Shown here: in pieces, positions 8,126 to 54,038 of the stretch
How positions within the stretch are numbered: position 1 is the stretch's first letter
Layout of the letters: every line of letters starts with the position of its first letter
Source of the DNA: an uncultured Gemmatimonadales bacterium
GTDB taxonomy: Bacteria; Gemmatimonadota; Gemmatimonadetes; Gemmatimonadales; GWC2-71-9
Length of the DNA stretch: 64,000 nucleotides
Assembly (NCBI GenBank): GCA_963709905.1
Contig: CAVPYI010000005.1
Coordinates: 147,897 to 211,896 of the forward strand
Direction: 5' to 3'
Translations under genes and position numbers: made by a program
The notes under the pieces: model-generated
What the model was told of the DNA's origin: nothing
Databases searched by the model: none
Seen by the model: the letters and a program-made list of their open reading frames with translations, nothing else

Positions 8126-8643
8126 TCGCCTTTCGGGTCGGTGGGATCCCAGAGGGTCGACACCGGATGGGTCTGCGAAGACAGCCGTTCGAGATCGTAG
8201 ACGAACCGGTCGCGACTGTACTCGGCGTTCTCATAGTGCACGCCCACGTGAATCGCTTCCTCGGGACAGACCTCCTGGCAGTACCCGCAGAACACGCAGC
8301 GGAACTCGTCGATCTCGTAGATCAGCGGGTAGCGGTTGCCCTCCTCATCCTCGCCCGGCACCAGCTTGATGCAGTTGGCCGGACAGATCTGCGGGCAGAG
8401 GCCACAGGCCACGCATTTCGAGCGTCCCTGCTCGTCAGTGAGCATGCGATGGGTCCCGCGCCAGCGCGAGGACAGGGTCCAGGCGCCGCGGGCGGCCTCG
8501 GGCGCGCTCTTCTCCTCGGGGTACTGCATCGTCACCTTCGGCTCGAGCATCTTGCGGAAGGTGATCGCCATGCCCTTGAGCGTGGCGCGCACGTAACTCA
8601 CCCCTCGCTCCGGCCGTTTCAGGACCTTCACGCCAATTGCCAT
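8122..8643 (-). CDS. nuoI: NADH-quinone oxidoreductase subunit I (2x[4Fe-4S] ferredoxin)
   Basis: Two CxxCxxCxxxCP motifs (CVACGLCPQICP and CVFCGYCQEVCP). Confidence 0.95.
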
Positions 8644-17048: not shown

Positions 17049-18545
17049 TCACGGCACCCCGACCTGCCACAGTCCCGACAGCATGTCCGCCACGTACAGG
17101 TCTGCTCCGGCGAGCATCACCCCCCAGACGTAAGTGTTACCGCCACCCCCCGGACGAATCCGGGCGATCTCCCGGTTGGCCAGATTGCCACTCAGGGTCC
17201 CCGAGACGTCCAGCGCAACCACACCGCCGTCGTAGAAGGCGGCGTACAACCGCTGATTCGGCTCATCCATCCAGAAGTTGTGTGCCCCGGCGCCGGGCGC
17301 CGGGTACCGGTACGTGGCCACTTCCACCGGGTTGCCGAGATCCGACACGTCCACCACGTGGATGTCGCCCGACGAGGAGGAACCGATCGAGCCCGGACCC
17401 TCCTGCCCCACGAACAGATACCGCTTCTCCCCAGTGGTCGGATTCCAGAACCACCAGCCGTTGTGCGCCTGCCCACCCGCCGTCTGCAACCCGCCGACCC
17501 TGACCGGGGTCTGGGGCGTTCCGCCCGCGGTCCCCTTCCCCACGTCGTAGATGTACACCCCCTCGTTCCAGACGAAGCTGAAACAGAGGCCGTCCCGGAC
17601 GAAGTTGTCGTGGATGCCGTAGAACGGCGGGATCGGGGTCGAGCTCGCCAGCGTGATATTCCCGGTGGCCGCGTCCGAAAGATCGAAAATCACCAGTGCC
17701 GGACTGGGCGGGTTCTTGGCGGTGAAGGCGTAGAGAACCCCATCGACCACACCGAGTGACCCCGTGTGCAGTCCGGCGCTCACCGGGGCATAGGCCGACT
17801 GCACCGGCGCAGCCGGGCTTGCCAGGCTGTAGAGATAGATGCCCTGGTTGGTACCGCCTTCCGCTGTGGCGAGCAGCCACTGCCCGTCCGGCGATACCTC
17901 GAGGTCGCTGATGGTATTGACCCCGGCGACGATGATCGAATCCAACAGCACCGGGGCCCCGGTGCCGCTCAGCTGGAAGACCTTGATCGCCCCGGTGACC
18001 CCGGTGGTCCGTTGAAGGTGATTCCACGTCCCAACGTAGGCGTAGCCGTTGGCGACCCACAGGTCCGAACTGAACCGTTCGGGGAGGTTGTTCCCGCCGC
18101 CGAGTACCACCAGCGCGCCGGTGCCGGTGGCATGTACTACCGCGGTGTCGAGGCCATCCACTATGGCCAGTATTTCCTGACCCCCGACCAGCGGTCCGAG
18201 AGTCCAGACCGCTTCGGTCGTCCCGTCGACCGCGGTCGTGGTGCCTGCGGCCGACAGGCTCCCGCCACCCGCCCGGACCAGCCAGCCCACACTCGTTCCG
18301 GCGCCGACGTTGTCGCCCAACGAGTCGATGACCCGGACCCGGATCGGCAGCGGGAGCGCCGCCAACGGCGGACCCTGCTGATCGTCGCCCGCCACGACGG
18401 TGACGCCGACCGGATCGGGCCCGGGGTCGGGCCCGGTGCCTTTTCCGTCCCCACAGGCGACCAGCAAGGCGACGGCCAGCAACCCGGCAAAGGGTCTCGG
18501 CTTCCACTCACTTGTCCCGGGAGATCGATGGCGCTGCAGTTGCAT
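17049..18545 (-). CDS. lipoprotein with LVIVD-type beta-propeller repeats
   Basis: Signal peptide with lipobox LLVAC. Repeated motifs LVIFDLSDAATGN, IHVVDVSDLGNPVEV, VVALDVSG and YVADMLSGLW resemble LVIVD repeats. Confidence 0.7.
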   Translation of the reverse strand: MQLQRHRSPGTSEWKPRPFAGLLAVALLVACGDGKGTGPDPGPDPVGVTVVAGDDQQGPPLAALPLPIRVRVIDSLGDNVGAGTSVGWLVRAGGGSLSAAGTTTAVDGTTEAVWTLGPLVGGQEILAIVDGLDTAVVHATGTGALVVLGGGNNLPERFSSDLWVANGYAYVGTWNHLQRTTGVTGAIKVFQLSGTGAPVLLDSIIVAGVNTISDLEVSPDGQWLLATAEGGTNQGIYLYSLASPAAPVQSAYAPVSAGLHTGSLGVVDGVLYAFTAKNPPSPALVIFDLSDAATGNITLASSTPIPPFYGIHDNFVRDGLCFSFVWNEGVYIYDVGKGTAGGTPQTPVRVGGLQTAGGQAHNGWWFWNPTTGEKRYLFVGQEGPGSIGSSSSGDIHVVDVSDLGNPVEVATYRYPAPGAGAHNFWMDEPNQRLYAAFYDGGVVALDVSGTLSGNLANREIARIRPGGGGNTYVWGVMLAGADLYVADMLSGLWQVGVP

Positions 18546-18549
18546 CGAA

Positions 18550-19800
18550 TCACATCTTCGAGTGATGGTGACGGTCCCCGTTCAGGCTATCGGGAACCAG
18601 GCCGCCGTAACGGCCCATCCGGTGGCCGCTCAGGCGCCAGCTGGCCCGGAGCCCGAGTGAGACCGAATTGAACGATTCTCTCCCGTAGAATACGCTGGGC
18701 TGGAAGATTCCGCCGTCGATGTTTCGCATTGTACCGAAGGTCACCTCGACGAATGGCCGCAAATCGAGACCACCGGGCCCCGTCACCCGAACCGAATAGC
18801 CCAGAGTCTGGAGGGTCCAGCGGGTCGTTCCCGCGATCGAGTTCTCCAGGTGAGGCCGGATCGAGCGGAAGGGATCACTGGTTCGGAGGTCCTCCGGCCG
18901 ATCGCTCCGTTCGAAGCGGGCGTACGGCCGGTGGCGCCCGCGGGTCCACGCCGTTTCCAGCAGCACGCTCCGGAACACGAAGAAGCCGAACGCTTCCTCG
19001 GTGCGGGCCCATTCCGCCAGGGCATAGACGCGACCGCCGGCGAGTCCCCGCTCGATCCGGGCGGCGACGTGCCATTTCCAGGCGGTGGTCCCTGCGCCTG
19101 GGCGATGTTCGGGCGAATGGACCTTGGCCCGGGAGCCGGACACCTCCACACCGGACGCTGGATAGGCCGACAGCCGGGCCGACCAGGAATCCCCGAATCG
19201 CTCCCAATTGGGCCACTGTCCCGGGCGCTCCGGTTCGTCCCCGTTGAACAAGCCCGCCTCGAGCGCCACCGGGCCGGCGCGGACTCCGGCAATCACCACC
19301 GCCCGCTCGAGGATGTGCGCCAGGTGGTGGTTCACCGGATATCGGACGGGGGGACGGCTCATGGGATCGTCCGAGCCGAAGGGGGCGAATCCCTTCCCGG
19401 CGCTGATGGAAACCCGGATGGGTCCATCCCGGCGACCGAGTGGAGACGCCGCCGAGACCATCAGTTCATGGACGTAGGTGTGCGGGTGCCTCCGATCGTT
19501 GAACCCTTCCCCCCACGCACCGGGCGTCAGCTCCCCGTCGGGGATGGTCTGGCCCTCGAGATTCAGGGTTCCGAGTCCGCTCAGCCTGCCCTGCAGGGCC
19601 TGGGCGTGCACCATGACGACCGGCTGTACCAGCCGCGCTTCGGTGAGGTGGTTTCCGCCGGGGATCGGCTCCGCCCGGGTGAGCACGGCGACAGCCTGGC
19701 CGCTCACCGTCAGGGATGCCGCCTGCTGGGCCGCCAGAGCAGCGGAACCGGGAAGCAGCAGCAGGGTGGCGAGAACAGCAGGCGAAACGAGGGAGCTCAC
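18550..19800 (-). CDS. hypothetical secreted protein, probably outer-membrane beta-barrel
   Basis: GTG 19800 gives the signal peptide VSSLVSPAVLATLLLLPGSAALAAQ. Alternating-hydrophobicity strands throughout; several His-rich patches. The portion of the track ORF upstream of 19800 overlaps sdhB. Confidence 0.6.
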   Translation of the reverse strand: MSSLVSPAVLATLLLLPGSAALAAQQAASLTVSGQAVAVLTRAEPIPGGNHLTEARLVQPVVMVHAQALQGRLSGLGTLNLEGQTIPDGELTPGAWGEGFNDRRHPHTYVHELMVSAASPLGRRDGPIRVSISAGKGFAPFGSDDPMSRPPVRYPVNHHLAHILERAVVIAGVRAGPVALEAGLFNGDEPERPGQWPNWERFGDSWSARLSAYPASGVEVSGSRAKVHSPEHRPGAGTTAWKWHVAARIERGLAGGRVYALAEWARTEEAFGFFVFRSVLLETAWTRGRHRPYARFERSDRPEDLRTSDPFRSIRPHLENSIAGTTRWTLQTLGYSVRVTGPGGLDLRPFVEVTFGTMRNIDGGIFQPSVFYGRESFNSVSLGLRASWRLSGHRMGRYGGLVPDSLNGDRHHHSKM

Positions 19801-19807
19801 GCAGCGT

Positions 19808-20581
19808 TCAGGTGGCGGACTCGGCAACGGGTGCCGGCTCACGGGTCGCGCTCGCCCTGATGTAGTCACGGAACAGGCCCGCGATCCAGTCGATGGAGAT
19901 CTCCTTGGGACAGGCCTCCTGGCACTCGCCATGCCAGGTACAGCCACCGAACCCTTCGGCGTCCATCTGCTCGACCATGCTGAGCGCCCGCCGCATCCGT
20001 TCGGGCTGCCCCTGCGGCAGCCGGGCGAGGTGGCCCGCCTTGGCCGACGTGAACAGCATGGCGGAGGCGTTGGGGCAGGCGGCGACGCAGGCGCCGCACC
20101 CGATGCACTGAGCCGCGTCCATCGCCGCATCGGCGTCGCCTTTTGGCACCAGGACGGTGTTCCCGTCCGGGGCGCTGCCGGTGGAGACGCTCACGAACCC
20201 GCCGGCAGCGATGATCCGATCGAACGCGCTGCGGTCGACGACGAGGTCCTTCAGGACCGGGAAGGCCCGGGCCCGCCAGGGCTCGATGTAGATGGTATCG
20301 CCATCCCGGAAACTCCGCATGTGCAGCTGGCAGGTGGCCGTGCCCCGCATGGGCCCATGAGCGATGCCGTTGATCATCATGCCACAGGAACCGCAGATCC
20401 CCTCACGGCAATCGTGGTCGAAGGCGATCGGAATCTCGCCACGCTGAATGAGACCTTCGTTCACCACATCGAGCATCTCGAGGAACGACATATCCGGGCT
20501 CACACCCGTCGCGTCGTAGTGTACCAGGCGGCCCGGAGCGGCAGCGGTGGGTTGGCGCCAGACGTAGAGGATGAGGTTCAT
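19808..20581 (-). CDS. sdhB: succinate dehydrogenase/fumarate reductase iron-sulfur subunit
   Basis: 257-aa ORF with [22 protein letters not shown] and [11 protein letters not shown] cluster motifs. Confidence 0.95.
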
Positions 20582-20591
20582 TGGACCGCGC

Positions 20592-22506
20592 CTACTTGTA
20601 GCTCCGTGTGCTCAAATGCACGTTTTCGAACACCAGGGGCTCCTTGTGGAGCCGCGGCGCCTTGTCGGTCCCCTGGTGCTCCCAGGCCGCGACATAGCAG
20701 AAGTTCTCGTCATCCCGTCGAGCCTCGCCCTCGGGCGTCTGATACTCCACCCGGAAATGCCCGCCGCAGGATTCCTCGCGGTGCAACGCGTCGAGCGACA
20801 TCAGCTCGGCGAACTCCAGAAAGTCCGCGACCCGGCCGGCCTTCTCCAGGGCCTGGTTGAGCTCCTCGCCGCTGCCCGGCACGTTCACGCTGTCCCAGAA
20901 TTCCTCCCGGAGCGCCGGGATCCTCTGCAGATTCGCCTTGAGCCCTGCCGCGCTCCGGGTCATGCCGCAGTGGTCCCACAAGAGCTTGCCCAGTTCGCGG
21001 TGGAACGAATCCACGGTCCTCACCCCCTTGGCGGCGAGCAGTTTCCGGGTTCGCCCGGCCACCTCGGCCTCGGCGGCGCGGAACGCGGGATGGGTCGGGT
21101 CGATCGGATCGAGCCGCGCCCGGGCCAGATAGTCCCCGATGGTGTAGGGAATCACGAAATAGCCGTCGGCCAGTCCCTGCATCAGGGCGCTGGCGCCCAA
21201 CCGGTTGGCGCCGTGATCCGAAAAATTGGCCTCCCCGAGGACGTGCAGACCGGGGATGGTGCTCATCAGGTTGTAATCCACCCAGAGCCCGCCCATGGTG
21301 TAGTGCACGGCGGGGAAGATCCGCATCGGTGTGCGATAGGGGTTGTCATCGGTGATCCGCTGGTACATCTGGAACAGGTTGCCGTAGCGCTCGCGGATCT
21401 GCTGCTCTCCCACGCGCACGATGGCGTCGGCGAAATCGAGGTAGACGCCGAGCTCGCCGGGCCCGACTCCACGGCCCTCGTCGCAGACCTCCTTGGCGGC
21501 CCGGCTGGCGATATCGCGGGGCGAGAGATTGCCGAAGCTGGGGTATTTCCGCTCGAGGTAGTAGTCGCGTTCCGCCTCGGGGATCTCGTGCGGCGGGCGC
21601 CGGTCGCCTCGGGCCTTCGGGACCCAGACCCGGCCGTCGTTGCGCAGCGACTCGCTCATCAGGGTGAGCTTGGATTGGTACTCCCCGCTCATGGGGATGC
21701 AGGTCGGGTGGATCTGGGTGAAGCAGGGATTGCCGAACGCGGCGCCGCGCTTGTACGCCCGGTAGCTGGCCGTGACGTTCGATCCCTTGGCGTTGGTGGA
21801 GAGGTAGAACACGTTGCCGTACCCGCCGGTGGCCAGGAGGACGGCGTCGGCGACATGGGAGTCAATCCGCCCGGTCACCAGGTCCCGGGTGATGATGCCC
21901 CGGGCCGCGCCGTCGACCACCACCAGATCGAGCATCTCGCCGCCGGGGGAACATCGTCACCGCGCCGGCCGCCACCTGGCGCTCGAGCGCCTGATAGCAG
22001 CCCAGCAGCAGTTGCTGGCCGGTCTGCCCCCGGGCGTAGAACGTCCGGGACACCTGGGCACCGCCGAACGACCGGTTGGCGAGCGTGCCGCCATATTCGC
22101 GGGCGAACGGCACCCCCTGGGCAACGCACTGATCGATGATGTTGACGCTGATCTGGGCGAGGCGGTAGACGTTGGCCTCGCGGGAACGAAAATCGCCTCC
22201 CTTGACCGTATCGTAGAACAACCGCCAGATGGAGTCGCCGTCGTTCTGATAGTTCTTGGCCGCATTGATCCCGCCCTGGGCGGCGATCGAATGGGCCCGC
22301 CGCGGAGAATCCTGGAAGCAGAAACAGGCCACGTTGTAGCCCAGCTCCCCGAGGGTCGCCGCCGCCGCGCCACCGGCCAGTCCGGACCCGACCACGATGA
22401 TCGAGTACTTCCGTTTGTTGGCGGGATTCACCAGCCGCATCTCGAACCGGTGGCGGTCCCATTTCTCCGCCAGCGGTCCGGCGGGAATGCGGGAGTTCAG
22501 CTCCAT
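20592..22506 (-). pseudogene. sdhA: succinate dehydrogenase/fumarate reductase flavoprotein subunit, interrupted by a single frameshift near 21936-21950
   Basis: Two ORFs together cover one SdhA. 21862-22506 has the N-terminal FAD domain ([26 protein letters not shown]). 20592-21935 starts [14 protein letters not shown] and runs through HPTCIP and the C-terminal domain. The frames switch at the run TTCCCCCGGCGGCGAG. This could be a real lesion or a sequencing/assembly indel. Confidence 0.85.
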
Positions 22507-26872: not shown

Positions 26873-27433
26873 TCACTTGGGTCGCGACCGCCGGCCCCGA
26901 CGGCGGCGGGTACTGGCGGTGCCCTCGGCCGGTGCTTCCTCGACCGGATCGTCGACCATCGATTCGGGGGGCAGTCCGTCCGTCACGCCAAGTTGCCGGA
27001 GCCCCTCGTAGAGCACGATGCTCACGGCGTTGGCCAGATTGAGGCTGCGCACCTCGCCCGGCATCGGGATCCGGAAGCAGCGCTCCGGGTGTTTCTCCAG
27101 GATCTTCGCCGGCATGCCATCGTTCTCATTGCCGAAGATCAACACGCTATTCGGCATGAAGGGAGCTTCGCGATAGTCCCGCTCGGCGTTGGCCGAGAAA
27201 TACAGGCAGCGCTCCCGGCTGATCGCATCCCGGAACCGGAACCAGTTGGGGTGCACCCAGAGATCCACCCGGTCCCAGTAGTCCAAGCCGGCCCGCCGGA
27301 CCTCGCGGTCATCCAGGCTGAAACCGAGCGGCTCGATCAGGTGCAGCGGCGTGTCGGTGGCCGCGCACAACCGGGCGATGTTCCCGGTATTGGGCGGGAT
27401 CTTCGGTTCGATCAGGGCGACGTGCAGAGCCAT
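26873..27433 (-). CDS. trmL: tRNA (cytidine/uridine-2'-O)-methyltransferase TrmL (SpoU/TrmH class) with a basic C-terminal tail
   Basis: ALIEPKIPPNTGNIARLCAAT, LIFGNE..G and SLNLANAVSIVLYE motifs. Confidence 0.88.
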   Translation of the reverse strand: MALHVALIEPKIPPNTGNIARLCAATDTPLHLIEPLGFSLDDREVRRAGLDYWDRVDLWVHPNWFRFRDAISRERCLYFSANAERDYREAPFMPNSVLIFGNENDGMPAKILEKHPERCFRIPMPGEVRSLNLANAVSIVLYEGLRQLGVTDGLPPESMVDDPVEEAPAEGTASTRRRRGRRSRPK

Positions 27434-27443
27434 CGGTCGGTGG

Positions 27444-28508
27444 TCACCCGCCTCGGGTGTGCATTTCCTTCAATGGGTCGCGCCGCAGTTCCTCGAGCTG
27501 GAACAACACGCCCCGGCCCGGACGGGCGGCACGGTCCTCCGCGCCACGGTCGTCCCGCTCAGCCCAGGCCTGGCGGACGAGGCTACCGAGTTCGTCATCG
27601 CTCGCCCCGTCACGCAGGGGCGTCCGCAGATCGAGACCCGCGTCGGAATAGAGGCACAGCAGGAAGTGCCCGTCGGCCGTCAGCCTGGCGCGATCGCAGG
27701 TGCGGCAGAACGGTTCGGTGGTGGAGGCGATGATCCCGAACACCGTGCCATCGGGCAACCGGAACCGGTCGGCCGGCGCTGCGCTCACGGCGTTCTCGGC
27801 CAGCGGCTCGACCCGACCATAGGTTCGCGCCAGCCGTTCCAGCATCTCCCGCCGCGAGACCACGTCGGCCATCCGCCAGCCGGTCGCGCCGCCAACGTCC
27901 ATGTACTCGATGAACCGGACTTCCACGCCATGCGATCGCCCGAACTCGATCAGGTCGACCAGCTCGTCGTCGTTGAAGCCCCGGGTCACCACGGTGTTGA
28001 GCTTGATGACCGTGAAGCCGGCGGCCTTCGCCGCCGTGATGCCGGCCAACACGTCGCCGTGGCGGTGCGACCGGGCCTGTGCCTGCATGCGGTCCGGTTG
28101 GAGGGTGTCGAGGCTGATGGTGACGCGGGTCAGGCCGGCTTGCTGCAGAGTCTCCGCCTGTTCCGAGAGCAGTATCCCGTTCGTGGTGAGGGCCAGGTCG
28201 GCCAGCGCCGGTCGTCCCGCCAGCATGCGCACCAGGGTGGCGAGATCCTGGCGCAGCAACGGCTCGCCACCTGTCAGCCGGAGCCGGCTCACTCCCAGGC
28301 CGGTCAGCACACCGACCAGCCGGTCGATTTCCTCGAACGAGAGAATCGAACTGCGGGGCAGCCAGACGTACTCGTCCTCCGGCATGCAGTAGCGGCATCG
28401 CATGTTGCAGCGATCGGTGACGGAGACGCGCAGGCTGGTGAGCGGTCTGCCGAGGCGGTCAGAGACCGGTGGCTCGGCGGCTCGGCGGCTCGATCCCTCC
28501 TTCATCAT
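27444..28508 (-). CDS. moaA: GTP 3',8-cyclase MoaA (radical SAM)
   Basis: LRVSVTDRCNMRCRYCMP radical-SAM motif and C-terminal CxxCxR..L cluster region. The ATG overlaps the moaE stop (ATGA). Confidence 0.92.
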   Translation of the reverse strand: MMKEGSSRRAAEPPVSDRLGRPLTSLRVSVTDRCNMRCRYCMPEDEYVWLPRSSILSFEEIDRLVGVLTGLGVSRLRLTGGEPLLRQDLATLVRMLAGRPALADLALTTNGILLSEQAETLQQAGLTRVTISLDTLQPDRMQAQARSHRHGDVLAGITAAKAAGFTVIKLNTVVTRGFNDDELVDLIEFGRSHGVEVRFIEYMDVGGATGWRMADVVSRREMLERLARTYGRVEPLAENAVSAAPADRFRLPDGTVFGIIASTTEPFCRTCDRARLTADGHFLLCLYSDAGLDLRTPLRDGASDDELGSLVRQAWAERDDRGAEDRAARPGRGVLFQLEELRRDPLKEMHTRGG

Positions 28509-28981
28509 GGCCCACCCCCTCGCCGCGACACTCCTTCTTCGATGACCACCGAGCCGACCAGCCGCCCAGCCGCCGAGCCGTCTACCCAGGCCACCGATCC
28601 ATCCTCGAAGTGCTCCTTCTTCCAGATCGGCACTCGCCGCTTGGTCTGCTCAATCACATATCGACAGGCTTCGAAGGCCTCGTCCCGGTGGGCTCCCGCC
28701 GCGGCGACACCAACCGCCGTATCACCGACTTCGAGCGTTCCCAGCCGGTGCTGGAACGCGATCCCGACCGGCCAACGACCCTCGGCCTCCGCGACGATGC
28801 GGGCGGCCTCAGCCTCCGCCATCGGCTCGTACGCCGAGTACTCGAGTCGGCGCACTCGGCGCCCCTCGTGGTGGTCCCGCACCAGGCCGAGGAAGGTCGC
28901 GACGCCTCCTCGGTCGGGTGCCGCAGTCGCGGCCACCAGGGTCGCGATATCGATTGGCTCGCGGGTCAGGAAGCGGGACAT
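28505..28981 (-). CDS. moaE: molybdopterin synthase catalytic subunit MoaE
   Basis: 158-aa ORF with GAVATFLG.VRD-like and PIWKKE motifs, located between moaD and moaA. Confidence 0.88.
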   Translation of the reverse strand: MSRFLTREPIDIATLVAATAAPDRGGVATFLGLVRDHHEGRRVRRLEYSAYEPMAEAEAARIVAEAEGRWPVGIAFQHRLGTLEVGDTAVGVAAAGAHRDEAFEACRYVIEQTKRRVPIWKKEHFEDGSVAWVDGSAAGRLVGSVVIEEGVSRRGGGP

Positions 28982-28985
28982 GGCC

Positions 28986-29231
28986 TCAGCCGCCCGCCAT
29001 GGGTGGGAGGATCGCGACCTCGTCGCCGTCCGCGACCCGGGTTTCCGGTCCTGCCTGGACCAGATTGACCGCCACCAGCGGGCGCGGCGGAAGCCGTTCC
29101 GCCCCCGGTACGGCGGCTCTCAGATGCCGGAGCACGTCGTCGACAGTGGCCTCCGCTCGCACCGGGATTTCGACCGATTCCCGGCCGGCGAGTTCGGCAT
29201 AACTGGCGAAGAGCAGCACCCGTACGGTCAT
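28986..29231 (-). CDS. moaD: molybdopterin synthase sulfur carrier MoaD
   Basis: 81-aa ubiquitin-like protein ending in PPMAGG. Confidence 0.88.
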   Translation of the reverse strand: MTVRVLLFASYAELAGRESVEIPVRAEATVDDVLRHLRAAVPGAERLPPRPLVAVNLVQAGPETRVADGDEVAILPPMAGG

Positions 29232-29268
29232 GAACGGAAGATAACGTCCCGAGGGGCCGGAAATACGG

Positions 29269-29294
29269 CGGGGTGGGCCAAGGAGCCCACCCCG
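29269..29294 (-). terminator. GC-rich stem-loop downstream of the IHF/HU gene
   Basis: cggggtggg-ccaaggag-cccaccccg: 9-bp perfect stem with 8-nt loop, 29 nt after the stop. On the transcribed strand it is followed by ccgtatttcc. Confidence 0.45.
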
Positions 29295-29322
29295 TGAAGG
29301 ACCATCGGTCGGGCCGGGCGTT

Positions 29323-36510: not shown

Positions 36511-37184
36511 AGCAGCCGCTCCGCGATTCGCAGGTCTTCCTCCGTGGTGACCTTCAGATTGAACGCCGAGCCGGGCACGATCCGCACAGTGGCGCCGAGG
36601 CGTTCGACCAGCGCCGCATCGTCGGTCGCCGACGCCCCCTCACGCCGGGCCCGTGCATGGGCCTCCTCGAGTAGCCCGCGCGGAAACCCCTGCGGCGTCT
36701 GCGCACGCCAGAGCCGTTCTCTGGGCACCGTCCGCGTCACCCTCCGGTCCGGGTCGCCCTCCTTGAGCGTATCATCGAGCGGCAGCGCCGGAACCGCGCC
36801 TTCGCCCTGCCGTGCCACGGCAATGACCCCGTCGATCGTCGCTCGATCCACGAACGGGCGGGCGGCGTCGTGCACCAGGACGATGCTGCAGGTGGCCGGC
36901 AGGCTGGCGAGACCATGAGCCACCGAATCGCTCCGGGCGGAACCTCCGGCGACCAGGCTCAGCGCTCCGCCCAGCAGTTCGCTCAACCAGGGCGGCGGGC
37001 TGGCGGCGTCGGCCGGCGGCAGCGCGACGACCGTGTGGGCCACCTCCGGATGAGCGGTAAAGGGGCGCAACGCGCGCAGCAACATCGGGACGCCACCCAG
37101 CGGGTAATACTGCTTGAGCACCGCACCGCCGATCCGGGTGCCCTGCCCCGCGGCAACGACCACCACACCTACGTCACGCGGCAA
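36507..37184 (-). CDS. ispD: 2-C-methyl-D-erythritol 4-phosphate cytidylyltransferase
   Basis: VVVAAGQGTRIG...K and VLVHDAARPFV motifs. Confidence 0.92.
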   Translation of the reverse strand: MPRDVGVVVVAAGQGTRIGGAVLKQYYPLGGVPMLLRALRPFTAHPEVAHTVVALPPADAASPPPWLSELLGGALSLVAGGSARSDSVAHGLASLPATCSIVLVHDAARPFVDRATIDGVIAVARQGEGAVPALPLDDTLKEGDPDRRVTRTVPRERLWRAQTPQGFPRGLLEEAHARARREGASATDDAALVERLGATVRIVPGSAFNLKVTTEEDLRIAERLL

Positions 37185-38526
37185 GGGTCGGTACCAGCTG
37201 CTCGACGTGATCGAGCCCCACCAGGGTCAAGCCCTGCACCTGGCCCGTCGTCCGGCCGGACACGAAGACCCGCCGGAACCCGAGCCGCTCGGCCTCCCCC
37301 AGCCGCCGTTCCAGCCCCCCGACGGGCCGAATCTCGCCCCCCAGGCCCAGCTCCCCCAGAAACAGCGCGTCGGGGGGCGAGGGCCGGTTGTGAACGCTCG
37401 AGAGCAGCGCCGCAGCCACCGCCAGATCCGACGCCGGCTCGGTGAGGCGGAGGCCCGCCGTCACCTGCACGAAGACATCGAGATCGGCGAACGCCGTCCC
37501 GCCGCGCCGTTCGAGCACCGCCAGCAGCACCGCCAGCCGTTTCTGCTCCAGTCCGGCCGCCACCCGCTGGGGGGTTCCGTAGCCGCTCCGCGCCGCCAGG
37601 GCCTGGATCTCGACCAGCACCGGACGGGTCCCCTCCATCAGCGCCGTCACGGCGCTACCCGCGGTACCGGCGGATCGCGCGGCCAGGAACACCGCCGACG
37701 GATTCGGGACCGGGACAAGACCGTGCCCGGTCATCGTGAAGACGCCCAGCTCGTCAACCGAACCGAATCGGTTCTTGGTGGCCCGGAGCAGGCGGTGGTC
37801 GAGGCTCGCTTCCCCCTCGAAGTACAGCACGGTATCGACGATGTGCTCGAGGGTCTTGGGGCCGGCGATGCCGCCGCCCTTGGTGACGTGCCCCACGACG
37901 ATGACCGCCGAGCCGGTCTGCTTGGCGAATCGCATGAGCCGGGCGGCACATTCACGCACTTGCCCCACGTTGCCCGGGGCGCCTTCGAGCAGCTCCGTGT
38001 ACACCGTCTGAATCGAATCGAGGATCAGGAGATCGGCGCCCAGCGCCTGGGCCGCTTCGAGAATGGTCTCCAGCCGGGTCTCGCCCAGCACGTGCACCGG
38101 CCCGGCGTCCTCCTCCAGCCGCTCCGAGCGGAGCCGCAGCTGCTCCGGCGATTCCTCCCCGCTGGCGTAGAGCACCTTCCGGCCCTGCCCCTCCAGACGG
38201 GCGGCGACCTGCAGCAGGAGGGTGGATTTGCCGATGCCGGGTTCGCCGCCCACCAACGTCATCGAGCCGGGGACCAGACCGGACCCGAGCACGAAGTCCA
38301 GCTCGGGGAGCCCCGTGCTCCAGCGGACCAGCCGCGACGGCGCGATGTCCTGCAGGCGGTTCGGCGGCGCGACCGCATGGCGGCCCGCCCGCGGCTTGCC
38401 GGCCACCGCGACGACGGGTTCCTCCGCCACGCTGTTCCAGGCCCCGCACGCCTCACACTTCCCCACCCACTTGGGATGATCGTGGCCGCACTCGGTGCAG
38501 CGGTAGACGGAGCGGGATCTAGCCAT
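37174..38526 (-). CDS. radA: DNA repair protein RadA/Sms
   Basis: N-terminal zinc finger YRCTECG...W.GKC..CG.WN, Walker A GGEPGIGKSTL, the KNRFG motif and a Lon-like C-terminal domain. Confidence 0.96.
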   Translation of the reverse strand: MARSRSVYRCTECGHDHPKWVGKCEACGAWNSVAEEPVVAVAGKPRAGRHAVAPPNRLQDIAPSRLVRWSTGLPELDFVLGSGLVPGSMTLVGGEPGIGKSTLLLQVAARLEGQGRKVLYASGEESPEQLRLRSERLEEDAGPVHVLGETRLETILEAAQALGADLLILDSIQTVYTELLEGAPGNVGQVRECAARLMRFAKQTGSAVIVVGHVTKGGGIAGPKTLEHIVDTVLYFEGEASLDHRLLRATKNRFGSVDELGVFTMTGHGLVPVPNPSAVFLAARSAGTAGSAVTALMEGTRPVLVEIQALAARSGYGTPQRVAAGLEQKRLAVLLAVLERRGGTAFADLDVFVQVTAGLRLTEPASDLAVAAALLSSVHNRPSPPDALFLGELGLGGEIRPVGGLERRLGEAERLGFRRVFVSGRTTGQVQGLTLVGLDHVEQLVPTLAA

Positions 38527-38657
38527 CGGCGGCTCGGCGGCTCGGCGGCTCGGCGGCTCGACCGGTCAAGACCGGAGCAGGAGAGCCGCGGACCCCTGGG
38601 CCACGCAATCCGCGGCGGCGTCTTCCAGCCGCCGAGCCGCCGAACCGCCGAGCCGCC
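38527..38657. repeat. hairpin element with tandem-octamer arms that fills the entire dnaB-radA spacer
   Basis: (GGCGGCTC)x4 at 38527-38560 and gccgccgagccgccgaaccgccgagccgcc at 38628-38657 are reverse complements with one mismatch. About 67-nt loop containing an inner CCGCGGA/TCCGCGG stem. Confidence 0.9.
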
Positions 38658-40112
38658 CTACCCATGCTCGGGTTCCTCCCGGTCACTCAGACTGGCAAAC
38701 CGGGTGAACTGCTTGTGGAAGTACAGCTCGAGGTGCCCGGTCGGGCCGTTGCGGTGCTTGGCCACGATCAGCTCGGCCTTGCCCTCGTTGCTGTTGCCCT
38801 CCTTGTCCACCGGCTCGTACATCACGGGTCGATGGATGAACAGCACCAGGTCGGCATCCTGTTCGATGGCCCCGGAATCGCGCAGATCGGACAGAATCGG
38901 CTTGCGCTCCCCGCCGCGCTGCTCCGACGCGCGCGAGAGCTGAGACAGCGCGATCACCGGGACCTCGAGTTCGCGGGCGAGCGCCTTGAGCGAGCGCGAA
39001 ATGTCGGAGATCTCCTGGACCCGGTTGTCGGCGTAGGCCGGACTCCGCATGAGCTGGAGGTAGTCGACGATCACCAGCTGGACGTCGTTCTCCAGCCGCA
39101 GGCGCCGGGCCTTGGAGCGCATCTCGAGCAGGCTGATCGAGGGGCTGTCGTCGACCCAGATCGGGCAGGTCGAGAGCACCCCGGCGGCCCGCGCCAGCAT
39201 CGTGAAATCGGTGTCCGACAGGGTTCCCCGGCGGACCCGCTGGCTGTCCACCCGGGCTTCGGCGCAAAGCAGCCGCTGGACCAGCGATTCCTTCGACATC
39301 TCCATCGAGAAGATCGCCACCCCCGCCCCGGTCTCCGCCGCGTGCGCCGCGATATTGAGGCACAGGGCGGTCTTTCCCATCGAGGGCCGAGCCGCCACGA
39401 TCACCAGGTCGGAGCCCTGGAACCCGGTGGTGATCTCGTCCAAGTCTTTGAATCCACTGGGGACCCCGGTAACCTGTTTCCCCTGCTGATGGAGCTTTTC
39501 GATGCGCTCCATCGTCGGCCAGAGCATCTCCTTGAGTCGGCTGAAGTCTTCGGCCTTCCGGTACTGGGAAATCTGGAAGATCCGGGATTCGGCTTCATCC
39601 AGCAGCTGGCTGGCCGCCAGACTGCCTTCATAGGCCCGCGACACGATCGCGGTCGACGCCTCGATGAGATTGCGCAGGACCGCCTTCTCGCGGACGATGC
39701 CGGCATGGGCATCGAGATTCGCGGCGGTCACGGCCGCATCGATCAGCTCGGCGAGATACACCTCCCCGCCGGCGGCCTCCAGTTCTCCCTTGCGGTCCAG
39801 CTCGTCGCGCAGGGTGATGTGGTCGATCACCACCCGCCGCTCGGTCAGCCGCCGCATGGCCCGGAACAGCCGGCGATGGCCCTCGCGGTAGAACAGCGCA
39901 TCGTCCAACAGCTCCACGGCGCGGAGCGCGGCGTCCTGATCGAGGAGCATGGCGCCGAGCACCGCCTGCTCGGCCTCATTGCTCCACGGGGCGCCCCGCA
40001 CGGGGGCCACCGCGGGAGCGGCGGAATCGGTCTCGGAGAAAGTGCCGGGCGAGAACTGGGTCATTGCCGTGGATGGTGCCGGGAAGGAGGCCGAATCACC
40101 GGGGCGGCGCAA
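38658..40112 (-). CDS. dnaB: replicative DNA helicase DnaB
   Basis: N-terminal P.S.EAEQAVLGAML motif, Walker A ARPSMGKTA, IVDYLQLM and LSQLSR motifs. Confidence 0.96.
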   Translation of the reverse strand: MRRPGDSASFPAPSTAMTQFSPGTFSETDSAAPAVAPVRGAPWSNEAEQAVLGAMLLDQDAALRAVELLDDALFYREGHRRLFRAMRRLTERRVVIDHITLRDELDRKGELEAAGGEVYLAELIDAAVTAANLDAHAGIVREKAVLRNLIEASTAIVSRAYEGSLAASQLLDEAESRIFQISQYRKAEDFSRLKEMLWPTMERIEKLHQQGKQVTGVPSGFKDLDEITTGFQGSDLVIVAARPSMGKTALCLNIAAHAAETGAGVAIFSMEMSKESLVQRLLCAEARVDSQRVRRGTLSDTDFTMLARAAGVLSTCPIWVDDSPSISLLEMRSKARRLRLENDVQLVIVDYLQLMRSPAYADNRVQEISDISRSLKALARELEVPVIALSQLSRASEQRGGERKPILSDLRDSGAIEQDADLVLFIHRPVMYEPVDKEGNSNEGKAELIVAKHRNGPTGHLELYFHKQFTRFASLSDREEPEHG

Positions 40113-50247: not shown

Positions 50248-51354
50248 TCAAATGGTTCGCCACGCCCGGTATGCCCCTCGCGCGGCCAGCGCGGCCAGCC
50301 GGCGCCGGAGGCGCACGACAGGAGAGGTCCCGCGTACCCCAGGCACGATCGGCCAGCCGACCTCCGCCCGGGTGCCTTCCTCGATGAGCTTGTCGACTAC
50401 TCGCGGATAGCCGACTCCGTGACGATGCACGGCCAGCCGCCACCGGAGCGTTCGGCCCAGATCGAATGGCGTCCGGGGCATGTCCAGCACCCGCTGGCGG
50501 CCCGCGAGCCACTCGGCCGCGCCCAGCCAGGTCAGGGCCAGATCCCGCGACGGCACCTCGGACGAGTCCAGCCGGCCTTCAATCACATCCCACGCAATCG
50601 GCTCGGCACTCGCCAGAATCACGCTCGCGTCCAGGAAGTAGCGCAGGCGGAACGCAGCGGATCCCTGTATCAGACCATGGGTGATACTGTGCCAGAGCAG
50701 TTCCGTCGCACAGGGAATCGGAAACTCCAGCCCGTTCCGGGCCACCGATACCGCTGCGGACGTCGCCCGGCGCCAGGCCTCCTCCGGCGATTCATGTTTC
50801 GACGTCGACAGGTGCAATTCGACGGCCACCCGGTCCGTGCCCCAGAGCGGAGTCAGGTGAAAATGGTTGAGTGGGGTCCGGTCCTCGGCGCCGGCCGGCT
50901 GGTAGCCCGCGCGTTGCATATGGTTCCAGACTTCCGTGGCACGATCGTGAGGCACGATCAGGTCGACATCACCGGTGGCTCTGGCATCGGCGTAAGGATA
51001 GCGGGCGGCACCCACGCGCCGGGCGACGCCCTTGAGCCACACATGCGGATAGCGGTTGCTGGTGAGCCAGTCGCTGAGCCGGGCAACCTGCGCGTCTACC
51101 AGGAGGTTCCGGGCGACGTGATCGCGAGCCAGCTGCGACAGCCAGGCGGCGAACACCGGGTCAGGGGCATCCTCGGCTCCGGCGCCCTTGAGCCGACGGT
51201 AGAGCCACAACCCACAGCCCTCCTGGCGAACCACCGACGCAAGCCCGGCCGTCCTGAGCCCGCGCCAGGCCGACCGCAGCGCGACCGGATCCGGCTCGCT
51301 GCCGAAATGCAGGGTTTCGAGCAGCACCGCGACCGGATCTCTCACCGCCCCCAT
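50248..51354 (-). CDS. nucleotidyltransferase-family protein of the type found in lasso-peptide/PqqD cassettes
   Basis: 368-aa ORF with W.KG...........R..GDVDLIVP and HL(T/S)PLW-like motifs that I associate with the 'uncharacterised nucleotidyltransferase' family. Last gene of the RiPP-like operon. Confidence 0.7.
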   Translation of the reverse strand: MGAVRDPVAVLLETLHFGSEPDPVALRSAWRGLRTAGLASVVRQEGCGLWLYRRLKGAGAEDAPDPVFAAWLSQLARDHVARNLLVDAQVARLSDWLTSNRYPHVWLKGVARRVGAARYPYADARATGDVDLIVPHDRATEVWNHMQRAGYQPAGAEDRTPLNHFHLTPLWGTDRVAVELHLSTSKHESPEEAWRRATSAAVSVARNGLEFPIPCATELLWHSITHGLIQGSAAFRLRYFLDASVILASAEPIAWDVIEGRLDSSEVPSRDLALTWLGAAEWLAGRQRVLDMPRTPFDLGRTLRWRLAVHRHGVGYPRVVDKLIEEGTRAEVGWPIVPGVRGTSPVVRLRRRLAALAARGAYRAWRTI

Positions 51355-51430: not shown

Positions 51431-51859
51431 TCAACCTCCCGGATCCTGCTGCTCTGGAAACCTGGCGATCATCGTGTGGGTCGTGCTCGGAGAGGACGCC
51501 CGCTCAAGGTACGGCACCCCGGCGTAGAGGAGCCAGGCGTGGGCGGTGAGCGGCCCGTCCGGCTCCCGCCGGACGCCAATGCACAACTCCACCGGAATAC
51601 CGTCTCGACGAAGCAGATAATAGAGGATGGCCGACCGCTTGAGACAGGTGTGCCGCCATGGCCCGGGGAGAGTATACAGCAGATCGTCCACCCACACGGC
51701 GAGCTCCGCCGGATCATTGGCCGTGGTAATCACCCGTGGCCCGCTCCGCCCCAGCCAGGCGCAGAGACGGCTGAACGAGATCAGGGACAAGAGCGGCGGA
51801 ATGACCAAGGCGCTGATGGAGGCACGCAATTTGAGGGCGATCGGCAGAGGAGAGCTCAC
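51431..51859 (-). CDS. lasso peptide biosynthesis B2-type protein (transglutaminase-like cysteine protease)
   Basis: PGPWRHTCLKRSAILYYLLRRDGIPVELCIGV...LTAHAWLLYAG carries the McjB-type Cys...His core. GTG 51859 overlaps the PqqD stop (GTGA); the track ORF extends to 51901. Confidence 0.8.
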   Translation of the reverse strand: MSSPLPIALKLRASISALVIPPLLSLISFSRLCAWLGRSGPRVITTANDPAELAVWVDDLLYTLPGPWRHTCLKRSAILYYLLRRDGIPVELCIGVRREPDGPLTAHAWLLYAGVPYLERASSPSTTHTMIARFPEQQDPGG

Positions 51860-52134
51860 CCAACTCCCTCCTCCTCCGTGATCAGACTCGCCTGGCTGCA
51901 CAGATCCAGAAAGGCGCGCACGCTGGCCGTGGCGTGCTCGGGAGTCACTTCATACCGCTGGACCAGCACGGCCACCAGCTCCTCGAGCGTCCTGGGAGTC
52001 GAAAGCGCCTCCAGGATGACGACGCCAGTCTTGCTGACCGTGAAGTAGCGCCGAGTACCGAGGTGCAGCACGACACCCTCTCCCTCGATCGCGCTGAGTC
52101 GGAGGTCGGGATGGGGCCGGTAGCGGATGGTCAT
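51856..52134 (-). CDS. PqqD-family RiPP recognition element (lasso B1-like)
   Basis: 92-aa ORF: ...EGEGVVLHLGTRRYFTVSKTGVVILEAL..PRTLEELVAVLVQRYEV..E.A...V..FL..L is a typical PqqD fold sequence. Its ATG overlaps the kinase stop. Confidence 0.85.
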   Translation of the reverse strand: MTIRYRPHPDLRLSAIEGEGVVLHLGTRRYFTVSKTGVVILEALSTPRTLEELVAVLVQRYEVTPEHATASVRAFLDLCSQASLITEEEGVG

Positions 52135-53045
52135 CGGATCAATTCCGACAGGAGATCGGGCCTCCCGAACAGATCAGGCCCCAGGAAGACCCGGTACGCC
52201 CGACTCTGGCGACCGAGTCGGGTCAGCAGCTCCAGGTGCTCCTGGGCGAGTCCGGGTTCGACAATGACCCAGGCGGACCAGCGCACCAGTTCGGCGAGGG
52301 CCTGGCCGGGGCTCAGCAGTTCGGCCCGGGTGCGGTCGCCGCTCACGGTGGTAAACACGATGATCTCGGGCTCGACTCTGGCCACCCAGCTTCCCCCCAG
52401 CTCGTCCGGCCAGTATCCCACTTTGCCCCGGTCGGGAAGCGAGATTCCACCCGAGTGGGCCAACAGCTCCTGGCCCCCGGGGCGGAGCGCGATCCGACTT
52501 CGAAATGCGTGGGCTCCGACCCGATCTCCCGCCGAAACCAGGAAGGTGATGTCGTCGGTGCCGATGGCCCACCCCCACGAGCACACCAGCGCGGTGGTGG
52601 TCGATTTGCCCGAGCCCGAGTCACCTGCCAGGAGCCAGCCCCTGCCCTGAGGATCTACGGCGGTTCCCCCGTGCACATGATGCCAACCGGCCCGGCGCAG
52701 GAGAAAAATGAGCACGCTGAGAAAGAAAGTGCGCGTACTCTCTTCGATGCGTTCGGCCGCTTCGGGCGACAGCACTACCCGGGCGGAGGGTTCTCCGGGA
52801 CCCAGCTCCGCCACCGCGGGGGCAACCCCCCAGCGGATCGAGAGTCTATTATCAGGGGGAAGGACGTGGAAGGAAACGCCGGGCTGCTGAAACGCGGCCG
52901 GAGTCCCGTCCGGCGGTGCGACGGCTTCGATTCGAACGTCGATACGGAGGGGCACCGGCGGAACGATCCGGCCTTCGACCAGCCACGACTGCAGATGACC
53001 CCGGATGGCGGCGTCCGCGCAGCTGACCTGGATTTCAGGGGACAT
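52131..53045 (-). CDS. HPr-kinase-like serine/threonine kinase (RiPP-associated)
   Basis: 304-aa ORF. HGGTAVDPQGRGWLLAGDSGSGKSTTTALV resembles the HPrK/P C-terminal domain P-loop, as in kinases of phosphorylated lasso-peptide clusters. Confidence 0.75.
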   Translation of the reverse strand: MSPEIQVSCADAAIRGHLQSWLVEGRIVPPVPLRIDVRIEAVAPPDGTPAAFQQPGVSFHVLPPDNRLSIRWGVAPAVAELGPGEPSARVVLSPEAAERIEESTRTFFLSVLIFLLRRAGWHHVHGGTAVDPQGRGWLLAGDSGSGKSTTTALVCSWGWAIGTDDITFLVSAGDRVGAHAFRSRIALRPGGQELLAHSGGISLPDRGKVGYWPDELGGSWVARVEPEIIVFTTVSGDRTRAELLSPGQALAELVRWSAWVIVEPGLAQEHLELLTRLGRQSRAYRVFLGPDLFGRPDLLSELIR

Positions 53046-53067
53046 GCCAGTAAGATGGGCACGAGAG

Positions 53068-53106
53068 CCCCCACGTGCCGGTCTGCCTTACGGCCGACAC
53101 GTGGGG
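53068..53106 (-). terminator. stem-loop between the precursor gene and the kinase gene (possible attenuator or processing site)
   Basis: cccccacgtgccg...cggccgacacgtgggg: about 12 bp of pairing with one mismatch. No U-tract follows. Confidence 0.3.
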
Positions 53107-53193
53107 TTCACGTTCGCTAACCGACGCCTATCCCTCCAGGTCCGGCCAGTTCAGCGCCTGCGCCGAACCGCCTCATCCTGGATTAGCCTAAGC

Positions 53194-53310
53194 TCAGGTA
53201 GGGATGCCGCCGCCGCCGTCGTTCGGTCCCGAAATCAGCGTCACCGCTGCGAGCGAGCCCTGCTCGGTCAGTGTGGGCTCTTCGAACTGCTGCCGGCTCT
53301 CGTTTGACAT
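53194..53310 (-). CDS. 38-aa RiPP precursor peptide with lasso-type leader
   Basis: MSNESRQQFEEPTLTEQGSLAAVTLISGPNDGGGGIPT. AAGGA Shine-Dalgarno sits 7 nt before ATG 53310. First gene of the operon, preceded by about 200 bp of unusually AT-rich DNA. Leader motif match is described in findings. Confidence 0.75.
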   Translation of the reverse strand: MSNESRQQFEEPTLTEQGSLAAVTLISGPNDGGGGIPT

Positions 53311-53552
53311 GGTCGTTTCCTTGGCATCGGTCAGGGCAAAAGGTACCTGCTCGTAGTGCAAGACTCGGCCCAACAGTGCAACACTCTCCCTCGTTTGTAA
53401 GTCGTTGTCAGCAGCATGAATCGCGACGCCGCACAGAACAAGACCCCCCAAAGCGTAGCTTTGGCGCAACACATTCCGCTGAAACTGTGTGTGTCCGGTA
53501 TCACCAATGTACGGTCTTATGATGTCCGTGCAAGACCGGGTGCGCGCGTGGG

Positions 53553-54038
53553 TCAGTGACCCGCTGGAACACAGCTCACTCTGGCAAAGGGAAACTCGAC
53601 CCGGCGACGGGTCCCTCCGGTCGGCCCGTCGATCCAGGCCAGAACCGAGTCCCGGTTCACCCGACGGTAGCCGATCTCCTGCGGGTAGTCGTGCGCCGGG
53701 TTGGCAAAGCGTAATTCTTCCCCGGACGGGACCCCCACAGTGCGGAAGGTGGCCGGTGCCTGGCCGGAAGGGTGGGCTTCGAGTGACCAGCCATCGGCTC
53801 GCATCCGCAGAATCAGAAACTCATACTCAACCACCGAGTCTCCCCGAACGGTTCGACTGGTGCCGAGCATCATCCCGCCCCGCGGCAGCGACCACTGCTC
53901 TTCCACGACCCTCCCATTCCGTTCCCGCCGCCAGCAGCCGGCGAGCCACCCGGGAGAGATTGGAGTAGTGTACGGGGCTCCCAGAAACATCGCCACCAGA
54001 ATGAGCGTCATCTGTCGAAGCATTGATCCTCCGGGCAC
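53553..54038 (-). CDS. hypothetical secreted protein
   Basis: 161-aa ORF with an N-terminal signal-like segment MTLILVAMFLGAP. No motif I can name with confidence. Confidence 0.55.
   Translation of the reverse strand: MPGGSMLRQMTLILVAMFLGAPYTTPISPGWLAGCWRRERNGRVVEEQWSLPRGGMMLGTSRTVRGDSVVEYEFLILRMRADGWSLEAHPSGQAPATFRTVGVPSGEELRFANPAHDYPQEIGYRRVNRDSVLAWIDGPTGGTRRRVEFPFARVSCVPAGH

Follow-up and report, generated by a model that had tools for sequence, protein, structure and literature searches.

In a 64-kb stretch of the genome of an uncultured Gemmatimonadales bacterium (64,000 nucleotides of contig CAVPYI010000005.1, referred to below as the window), a short gene, here called A, heads an operon-like cassette of five genes, A, K, B1, B2, and N, all on the minus strand. 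We consider that A probably encodes the precursor of a linear, leader-dependent peptide that is made by the ribosome and modified after translation (a RiPP), and that the cassette, which has no lasso cyclase, descends from phosphorylated-lasso pathways. Most likely, the cassette makes no lasso peptide but a linear one decorated with phosphate. An initial annotation had described a lasso-type leader joined to a core that could not form a lasso ring. Leader and core are as it described them, but the peptide is not an aberrant lasso precursor, as the cyclase is absent. The apparent conflict between leader and core dissolves because no lasso cyclase is encoded in the window or near homologous cassettes.

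A is a real, conserved coding gene. It runs from 53310 to 53194 on the minus strand and encodes 38 amino acids (aa) and a stop codon (MSNESRQQFEEPTLTEQGSLAAVTLISGPNDGGGGIPT*, stop at 53196 to 53194). The coordinates first given for this small open reading frame (ORF) were right, and the minus strand yields exactly the 38-aa peptide then reported; the plus-strand reading of 53194 to 53310 was rejected, since its translation is meaningless. Residues 1 to 25 form the leader, MSNESRQQFEEPTLTEQGSLAAVTL (53310 to 53236), and residues 26 to 38 the 13-aa core, ISGPNDGGGGIPT (53235 to 53197). The AAGGA proposed as a ribosome-binding site is present, a Shine-Dalgarno-like element at 53318 to 53322 (minus strand), 7 nucleotides (nt) 5' of the ATG, at -12 to -8. 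A strict form of the lasso leader motif, [YF]xxPxLx3Gx5Tx, matched once in the six frames of the window, against a mean of 0.07 matches in Markov-1 random windows and 0.00 when a small-ORF context was also required. By itself A has no Pfam match, and its score with the NCBIfam model lasso_leader_L3 is 18.2 bits, just under the cutoff of 19.

Comparison with related genomes bears out the coding status of A. A leader-pattern search in six frames of all the homologous loci described below found 58 small ORFs from 43 sources 5' of the kinase gene, so that a conserved small ORF at this position, on which the initial annotation depended, is indeed a feature of homologous loci. All lie on the strand of the kinase gene, and nearly all about 100 nt 5' of it. 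Among 58 distinct DNA sequences of the 17-codon motif, pairwise differences per site were 0.26 at the first codon position, 0.21 at the second, and 0.56 at the third. The G+C content at third codon positions (GC3) is 0.79 in A versus 0.76 to 0.81 in the neighboring genes, and a Shine-Dalgarno-like tetramer precedes 43 of the 45 homologs that start with ATG. Taken together, homolog conservation, codon-position bias, GC3, and the Shine-Dalgarno element establish A as a coding gene. In a large protein database, 433 proteins match a profile of the precursor family; all are unnamed or "hypothetical protein," and every taxon label present among them is Gemmatimonadota. The peptide of the window has itself already been called in public data, as a 38-aa hypothetical protein. 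A longer reading of 92 aa from a GTG at 53472 was rejected: the ATG start is favored because the in-frame upstream extension has a GC3 of only 0.61, and in addition homologs begin near the motif and the Shine-Dalgarno element precedes the ATG.

All five leader positions assigned to the lasso motif, F-17, P-14, L-12, G-8, and T-2, counted back from the cleavage site, are present in the window peptide. Alignment of the 57 unique precursors recovered from the loci supports a lasso-type leader on a RiPP precursor, with Pro at -14, Thr at -2, and Phe or Tyr at -17 in 57/57 each. The substitution of Phe for Tyr at -17, remarked on in the initial annotation, is the family norm (F in 54, Y in 3). Position -12 is Leu, Val, or Ile in 56 of the 57, -10 is Glu in 54, -7 is Ser in 54, and -6 and -1 are Leu in all; some leader positions were fixed by the search pattern, and those that it left unforced are E-10, the exclusive Leu at -6 and -1, and the exclusive Thr at -2. 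The Gly at -8 is found in the window peptide but is not a family feature, as this position is Ala in 50 precursors and Gly in only 6. Past the Thr-Leu, the cores are hypervariable and Gly-rich, with lengths from 6 to 57 aa; ten are shorter than 10 aa, and cores of 6 aa exist (VSPPPV, QSPGPT, and QTSAVL). A check proposed at the outset, that the leader be conserved in homologous loci as the core varies, is thereby borne out.

As first noted, Ile is the opening residue of the core ISGPNDGGGGIPT, and the sole acidic residue is at position 6. The conclusion that this core cannot form a canonical lasso ring is right and extends to the whole family. No Asp or Glu occurs in 35 of 57 cores from the loci or in 63 of 123 from database precursors. 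The canonical ring rule (Gly, Ala, Ser, or Cys at position 1 with Asp or Glu at positions 7 to 9) is satisfied by a single core, SSGGGYDLGKNGGA, which is one of the 57 and one of the 123. Cleavage elsewhere, which might give a ring-competent core, finds no support: neither T-2 nor L-1 varies, and an acceptor residue is missing from most cores.

The enzymes that would act on such a core are conserved as a unit. A profile-guided scan of reference genomes gave 54 loci, all Gemmatimonadota, which were taken with flanks of 7 to 10 kb. The order K-B1-B2-N is syntenic in about 50 of the 54, and the flanking genes are not conserved; homologs are all from Gemmatimonadota except for one labeled Rokubacteria. 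No ORF with the PP-loop motif SGGxDS was found in the window or in the 54 loci, except a 521-aa ORF in the closely related loci L040 and L041, and a Pfam scan of 20 window ORFs, each 484 aa or longer, gave no Asn_synthase match. All-versus-all clustering of flanking ORFs gave no further conserved family besides a Wzm/Wzt-type exporter, discussed below, and the divergent cassettes L055 to L058 have no cyclase either. That four enzymes are tightly conserved across the phylum without the macrolactam synthetase C argues that the pathway does not include C. As the DNA examined was the window and the flanks, it is the chemistry of the cores, and not a whole-genome search, that excludes a cyclase working in trans.

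As the initial annotation had it, A adjoins genes for an HprK-like enzyme and a PqqD protein. The first of these, K (52131 to 53045, minus strand, 304 aa), is a P-loop kinase-like protein of the HprK/PEPCK fold with more than 400 homologs. It has weak matches to HprK, ScmC (PF27840), and HprK_rel_A, all below curated cutoffs, and a profile match to the HprK structures 1jb1 and 2qmh (E = 0.0065). The Walker A residues G141-x4-G146-K147-S148-T149-T150 are invariant, as is the pair D164-D165. PEP carboxykinases (PEPCK) and HPr kinase/phosphorylases (HprK/P) have related folds. An AlphaFold2 model of K (mean pLDDT, the per-residue confidence, 92) was closest in a Foldseek search to PEPCK (E = 1e-7) and then to the HprK/P structures 1knx and 2qmh (E = 2e-5 to 5e-5). 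In PsmK, the kinase of the pseudomycoidin pathway, the counterpart of the DD pair is the D158/D159 metal site, mutation of which inactivates that enzyme (PMC6993621).

B1 (51856 to 52134, minus strand, 92 aa) is a discrete PqqD-type RiPP recognition element (RRE) whose start overlaps the stop of K by 4 nt. It matches Pfam PqqD with an E value of 5.9e-15, and its top NCBIfam matches, below cutoff, are Lasso_PqqD models. Its nearest solved relative is 9x90, the paeninodin-like lasso RRE PbaB1 (E = 6.7e-5), followed by TbiB1 (E = 0.01). B2 (51431 to 51859, minus strand, 142 aa) is a lasso-type transglutaminase-fold cysteine leader peptidase, with a Transglut_core3 match and 69.7 bits with NF033537, lasso_biosyn_B2, for which the cutoff is 33. 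Its start is that of the public 142-aa gene model, named "lasso peptide biosynthesis B2 protein" by NCBI; this GTG at 51859 overlaps the B1 stop as GTGA, and the mechanical ORF reaches 51901. The 4-nt overlaps at both the K/B1 and the B1/B2 junctions suggest translational coupling. Over 46 homologs, Cys86 and His121 of B2 (ORF numbering) are conserved in 100% and Glu133 in 98%. The last gene, N (50248 to 51354, minus strand, 368 aa), encodes an uncharacterized nucleotidyltransferase of family NTP_transf_5 (PF14907; E = 3.8e-26) with a T-x-DVD motif; among 46 homologs, conservation of its DVD, KGxARR, and VExH motifs is 90% or higher. Sequence searches returned no Protein Data Bank relative of N or B2, and the search with B2 retrieved only members of the same family, with no cyclase-containing ancestors among them.

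The closest parallel is with the linear polyphosphorylated peptides (LPPs), polyphosphorylated on core Ser3, which were described by Popov et al. (Nat Commun 2026, PMC13381572) and are stated by these authors to be restricted to Bacillota. LPP clusters encode an HprK-like kinase, a discrete RRE, a nucleoside triphosphate (NTP) transferase, an MsbA-like exporter, and an SpI/SipW-like leader peptidase, with no cyclase; the leader consensus is YxxPxVLxHQxIxFETxxS, cut after the Thr, and the clusters are often embedded in capsule loci (PMC13381572). When not phosphorylated, the LPP precursor served poorly as a substrate for cleavage. Our cassette resembles them in lacking a cyclase and in joining an HprK-like kinase to a discrete PqqD-type RRE and an uncharacterized NTP transferase, although K and N are matched to their LPP counterparts by enzyme type only. 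Both have a conserved aromatic-xx-P leader, a hypervariable C-terminal core, and one to three precursors per cluster, and both often adjoin polysaccharide-export genes. Leader landmarks also fall at identical spacing: aromatic at 0, P at 3, V/L at 5, I/L at 11, T at 15, and S at 18.

The two systems nevertheless differ in several respects. A lasso-type cut one residue past the Thr would place the conserved Ser at core +2, whereas it is at +3 in LPPs. The leader peptidase is the cysteine protease B2 in place of the class-defining SpI/SipW-like serine peptidase LppS; apart from Wzm/Wzt, no other gene family is conserved in the flanks of the cassettes, with the limit that no Peptidase_S26 profile scan of all flanks was made. 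Neither the cassette of the window nor most of the loci include the MsbA-like exporter (LppD), which occurs in one variant only. The hosts are Gemmatimonadota versus Bacillota, and the cores measure 6 to 57 aa (13 here) versus 45 aa in LppA. The middle of the leader reads E-E-A-S-L in place of H-Q-x-I-x-F-E, the H-Q and F-E positions being unshared. Finally, PbaB1, a lasso RRE, is a closer sequence relative of B1 than is LppB, whose structure (9x8z) was not among the matches of B1 to solved structures. This closeness to a lasso RRE suggests that the cyclase was lost independently. We therefore regard the cassette as functionally LPP-like, yet outside the LPP family as delimited, and as a putative independent cyclase-less offshoot of phosphorylated lasso pathways.

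Those pathways supply the second point of comparison. Paeninodin-type lasso precursors receive a phosphate on their C-terminal Ser from HprK-like kinases (PMC8498205), and in pseudomycoidin biosynthesis PsmK phosphorylates the peptide, after which PsmN adds one or two hexoses to the phosphate (PMC6993621). Like the paeninodin and pseudomycoidin clusters (Zhu et al. 2016; Zyubko et al. 2019, PMC6993621), the cassette has an HprK-like K with a DD metal site, split B1 and B2, an N, and a leader with Thr at -2; in those systems the precursor is phosphorylated before the leader is removed. They differ in possessing the synthetase C, an ATP-binding cassette (ABC) exporter D, ring-competent cores, and a C-terminal Ser acceptor, none of which is a conserved feature here. 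With canonical split-B1/B2 lasso clusters (such as TbiB1/B2 and FusB1/B2), the cassette shares the YxxPxLx3Gx5Tx leader logic, the RRE, and a transglutaminase-fold protease whose Cys/His/acidic triad is conserved. The differences are the missing cyclase, Phe for Tyr, mostly Ala for Gly at -8, Glu as the triad acid, and cores that cannot cyclize. In the SynChlorMet (ScmC plus ScmD) and HprK-related kinase A systems, too, a PqqD-like protein accompanies an HprK-like P-loop protein. However, K scores far under the cutoffs for ScmC/PF27840 (18.9 versus 125) and HprK_rel_A (16.8 versus 200), and there are no radical-SAM (S-adenosylmethionine) partners here; the relation ends at the superfamily. Our literature search, which was of incomplete coverage and is not proof of absence, returned no prior description of a Gemmatimonadota A-K-B1-B2-N cassette.

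From these comparisons we infer the following course of events. B1, by homology to lasso B1 proteins, would bind the FxxPxL segment of the leader. With the leader still attached, K would phosphorylate a hydroxyl of the core, possibly repeatedly, and conservation together with positional equivalence to LPP Ser3 marks Ser27 as the likeliest site. B2 would then cut after Thr24-Leu25 and free the 13-residue ISGPNDGGGGIPT, as the lasso rule of Thr at -2 and the conserved Cys, His, and Glu of B2 lead one to expect. By family analogy alone, N might add a hexose or a nucleotide-derived group to the phosphate, as PsmN does in pseudomycoidin. The end product would be a modified linear 13-mer.

The choice of Ser27 (core +2; codon 53232 to 53230, minus strand) departs from the initial annotation, which expected a conserved C-terminal Ser or Thr as the acceptor. 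When 160 unique cores are pooled, 143 have Ser and 11 have Thr at position +2, for a combined 154/160 (96%), and all 160 have a Ser or Thr within +1 to +4, compared with 56% by chance. The C-terminal residue is Ser or Thr in only 93 of the 160 (58%), so the conserved hydroxyl is that of core +2. We prefer Ser27 because the +2 Ser/Thr is near-invariant and lies at the same spacing from the aromatic, Pro, and Thr landmarks as the phosphorylated Ser3 of LPPs, which makes it, on alignment and analogy, a better candidate for the kinase target in the window peptide than Thr38.

Several observations weigh against a linear, phosphorylated product modified in this way. The sequence likeness of K to HprK is weak, and the Foldseek TM-scores, a measure of fold similarity, are modest (0.26 to 0.49). 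The NTP transferase of the LPPs was without detectable effect in a heterologous host, and the S3T substitution there abolished phosphorylation (PMC13381572); in our set, position +2 is Thr in 11 of the 160 cores. The conservation of Ser at +2 could instead reflect recognition of the cleavage site by B2, and the enrichment of Ser and Thr at the C terminus may leave room for a paeninodin-like site there. The cassette of the window includes no dedicated exporter. The DNA searched comprised the 64 kb here and the 7- to 10-kb flanks elsewhere.

A broader proposal, which we put forward tentatively, is that these cassettes constitute a distinct, phylum-wide RiPP class, in which the lasso machinery for leader recognition and cleavage was turned to a new use, separately from the Bacillota LPPs, and makes very short (down to 6 residues), linear, Gly-rich peptides with a phosphate-linked modification on an N-proximal Ser. 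Within such a class, sub-families may differ in role, some having metal-binding His-Gly tails and others being phosphoglycosyl-peptide conjugates handled by Wzm/Wzt.

It is also conceivable, if rather unlikely, that the pathway is linear but that the target of the kinase is Thr38, at the C terminus, in the manner of PadeK and PsmK, which modify the C-terminal Ser of paeninodin and pseudomycoidin, and as the initial annotation proposed. Cores ending in Ser or Thr exceed the background of 18%, characterized lasso-associated HprK-like kinases recognize a Ser at the C terminus and have little other specificity (PMC8498205, PMC6993621), and, as noted, B1 resembles the paeninodin-type PbaB1 in sequence more than it does LppB. 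On the other hand, the last residue of 42% of cores is Gly, Ala, His, Val, Leu, or some other, and a C-terminal hydroxyl is therefore not a family requirement. Ser alone ends just 61 of the 160 cores, far fewer than have a hydroxyl at the LPP phospho-Ser3 position, and the enrichment figures for both +2 and the C terminus ignore the relatedness of the sequences.

Less probable again is that the modified peptide, instead of being secreted as a free natural product, carries or primes a phospho-linked glycan, or forms part of the cell surface or of polysaccharide-associated material that the machinery for polysaccharide export handles. The idea draws on a Wzm/Wzt-type ABC-2 exporter with a carbohydrate-binding Wzt_C domain that adjoins the cassette in 23 of the 54 loci, on the embedding of Bacilli LPP and paeninodin biosynthetic gene clusters (BGCs) in capsular polysaccharide loci (PMC13381572), and on the transfer of hexoses to phosphate by PsmN. 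However, Wzm/Wzt genes occur nowhere in the window and were not found in 31 of the 54 loci, the adjacency is convergent and not operonic, and the conserved core of the cassette has no glycosyltransferases. The argument is one of association throughout.

A genuine lasso of non-canonical form would need a cyclase encoded elsewhere in the genome that closes a ring, for example between Ile1 and Asp6, or does so after a different cleavage. We regard this as very improbable. The leader does fit the lasso B1 motif, B1 and B2 are of lasso type, B2 is above its NCBIfam cutoff, the nearest solved relative of B1 is a lasso RRE, marine Gemmatimonadota metagenome-assembled genomes have been reported to contain lasso BGCs (PMC11316326), and only part of each genome was covered. 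Against this stand the absence of a cyclase from the 64-kb window and from within 7 to 10 kb of about 56 cassettes, the cores devoid of Asp and Glu (35/57 and 63/123) or as short as 6 aa, and the finding that just 1 of 123 cores is ring-competent by the canonical rule. That A is a chance ORF or a non-coding leader region, with the cassette enzymes acting on something else, might be argued from its shortness, its want of a Pfam match, its sub-cutoff lasso_leader_L3 score, and our failure to find a sigma-70-like promoter, but this is effectively refuted already by the comparative data, namely, amino acid conservation in 160 unique homologs, third-position-biased divergence, gene-like GC3, a conserved Shine-Dalgarno element, a motif beyond chance expectation, and a fixed position and strand relative to K.

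The preferred reading, a linear phosphorylated RiPP, has consequences for how such clusters are found and classified. It means that the split lasso leader peptidase B1/B2 can persist in a cyclase-free pathway, which breaks the genome-mining assumption that B1 plus B2 equals a lasso peptide, and it may explain some of the lasso-type RREs without a co-occurring cyclase that were reported by RRE-Finder (PMC7470986). It would extend linear phosphorylated RiPPs past Bacillota to a poorly cultured soil phylum and to a different leader peptidase, and it implies more than one origin for the cyclase-less offshoots of phosphorylated lasso pathways. The family is a large one, with its more than 400 kinase homologs and 433 precursor-like proteins, all annotated as hypothetical. 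Its cores of 6 to 13 aa are tiny, easily synthesized substrates with which to probe an HprK-like kinase and an NTP_transf_5 enzyme.

There was some diversity among the precursors. The core of the window belongs to a sub-family of acidic or Gly-rich cores ending in [IVL]-P-[TGVM], its own end being IPT. Another sub-family has basic stretches followed by His-Gly repeats and ends in ...RRGHGHGHGHSS, ...GHGHGHSS, ...GHGHNS, or ...GHNS; it includes precursors at L023 6745 to 6897, L024 5500 to 5661, and L026 5036 to 5194 and 47 of the 123 database precursors, and its tails suggest metal binding. Loci carry one to three copies of the precursor, and the window has one. Tandem sets of two or three, with the same leader and different cores, lie 5' of one enzyme set in L028 and L032 (6030 to 6909), and also in L017, L020, L021, L025, L029, L031, L036, L038, L042, L045, and L052; tandem precursor genes with a shared leader are typical of RiPP diversification. 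In the precursor at L027 6770 to 6904, MAEPKKRYVKPVLIDEGTLEDVTLQSGGLVALEDVILPSGGLLS, a module made of the leader end and core start is repeated (LEDVTLQSGGL and LEDVILPSGGL); the precursor may hold two cores, or the repeat may stem from a recent duplication within it.

The cassettes and their flanks vary as well. The Wzm/Wzt-type exporter (ABC2_membrane plus ABC_tran with Wzt_C) lies directly past N and is usually convergent with it, as at L005 9730 to 11825, L013 9717 to 11765, and L057 8820 to 10800, all on the minus strand, an arrangement that parallels the capsule-locus context of the Bacilli LPP and paeninodin clusters. Locus L053 (6634 to 10172) has a precursor, K, B1, and a 616-aa MsbA-type ABC exporter (ABC_membrane plus ABC_tran), without B2 or NTP_transf_5; it is nearer to LPP clusters in exporter content, with no evident leader peptidase. 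In L004 (7001 to 9656), the order is K-B1-N-A, no B2 was detected between B1 (which ends at 8184) and N (which starts at 8230), and the precursor, at 9537 to 9656, sits downstream of N. L010 has K followed directly by N, and L011 and L012 have K with little else. These four loci may be decaying or rearranged cassettes. The most divergent cassette, L055 (1238 to 13209), is preceded by genes for TetR, OEP-like, and HlyD-like proteins, two ABC ATPases, and two ABC-2 permeases, and is followed on the same strand by a gene for a 471-aa retropepsin-like aspartic protease protein (Asp_protease_2, gag-asp_proteas); accessory export and processing are possible roles for these neighbors.

Between A and K lies a spacer of 148 nt (53046 to 53193, minus strand) with two G+C-rich hairpins, the stronger having the stem CCCCACGUGUCGGCC...GGCACGUGGGGG at about 53106 to 53069. 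Its minimum free energy is -74 kcal/mol (z = -3.9), and none of 200 shuffles folded as well. Equivalent spacers, with a median length of 99 nt, gave z below -2 in 78% of 40 loci when compared with mononucleotide shuffles. The hairpins could act as an attenuator or mRNA-stabilizing element that sets the ratio of precursor to enzymes, and they probably raise this ratio at the transcript level. A scan for sigma-70 promoters 5' of A found nothing. A weak terminator-like hairpin with a T-tract (53346 to 53362, minus strand) lies about 40 nt 5' of the ATG of A, between A and a DUF6265 gene (53553 to 54038, minus strand), and is within chance expectation (1 found versus 0.5 expected).

At its other end, the cassette is marked off by a tRNA-Leu(caa) gene (50193 to 50111, minus strand), 55 nt 3' of N, which is followed downstream by a gene for an AI-2E-family transporter. 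We saw no integrase and no shift in composition, the G+C content being even across the region, and hence no evidence that the cassette is a mobile island. Long ORFs of 498 to 648 aa at 17049 to 22139, 27351 to 29297, and 37114 to 38943 have no Pfam match at E <= 1e-5 and may be opposite-strand shadow ORFs in DNA of 67% G+C, or else uncharacterized proteins. The rest of the window is ordinary chromosome, with the nuo operon and genes for DnaB, an M17 aminopeptidase, citrate synthase, a thiolase, and a sigma factor.

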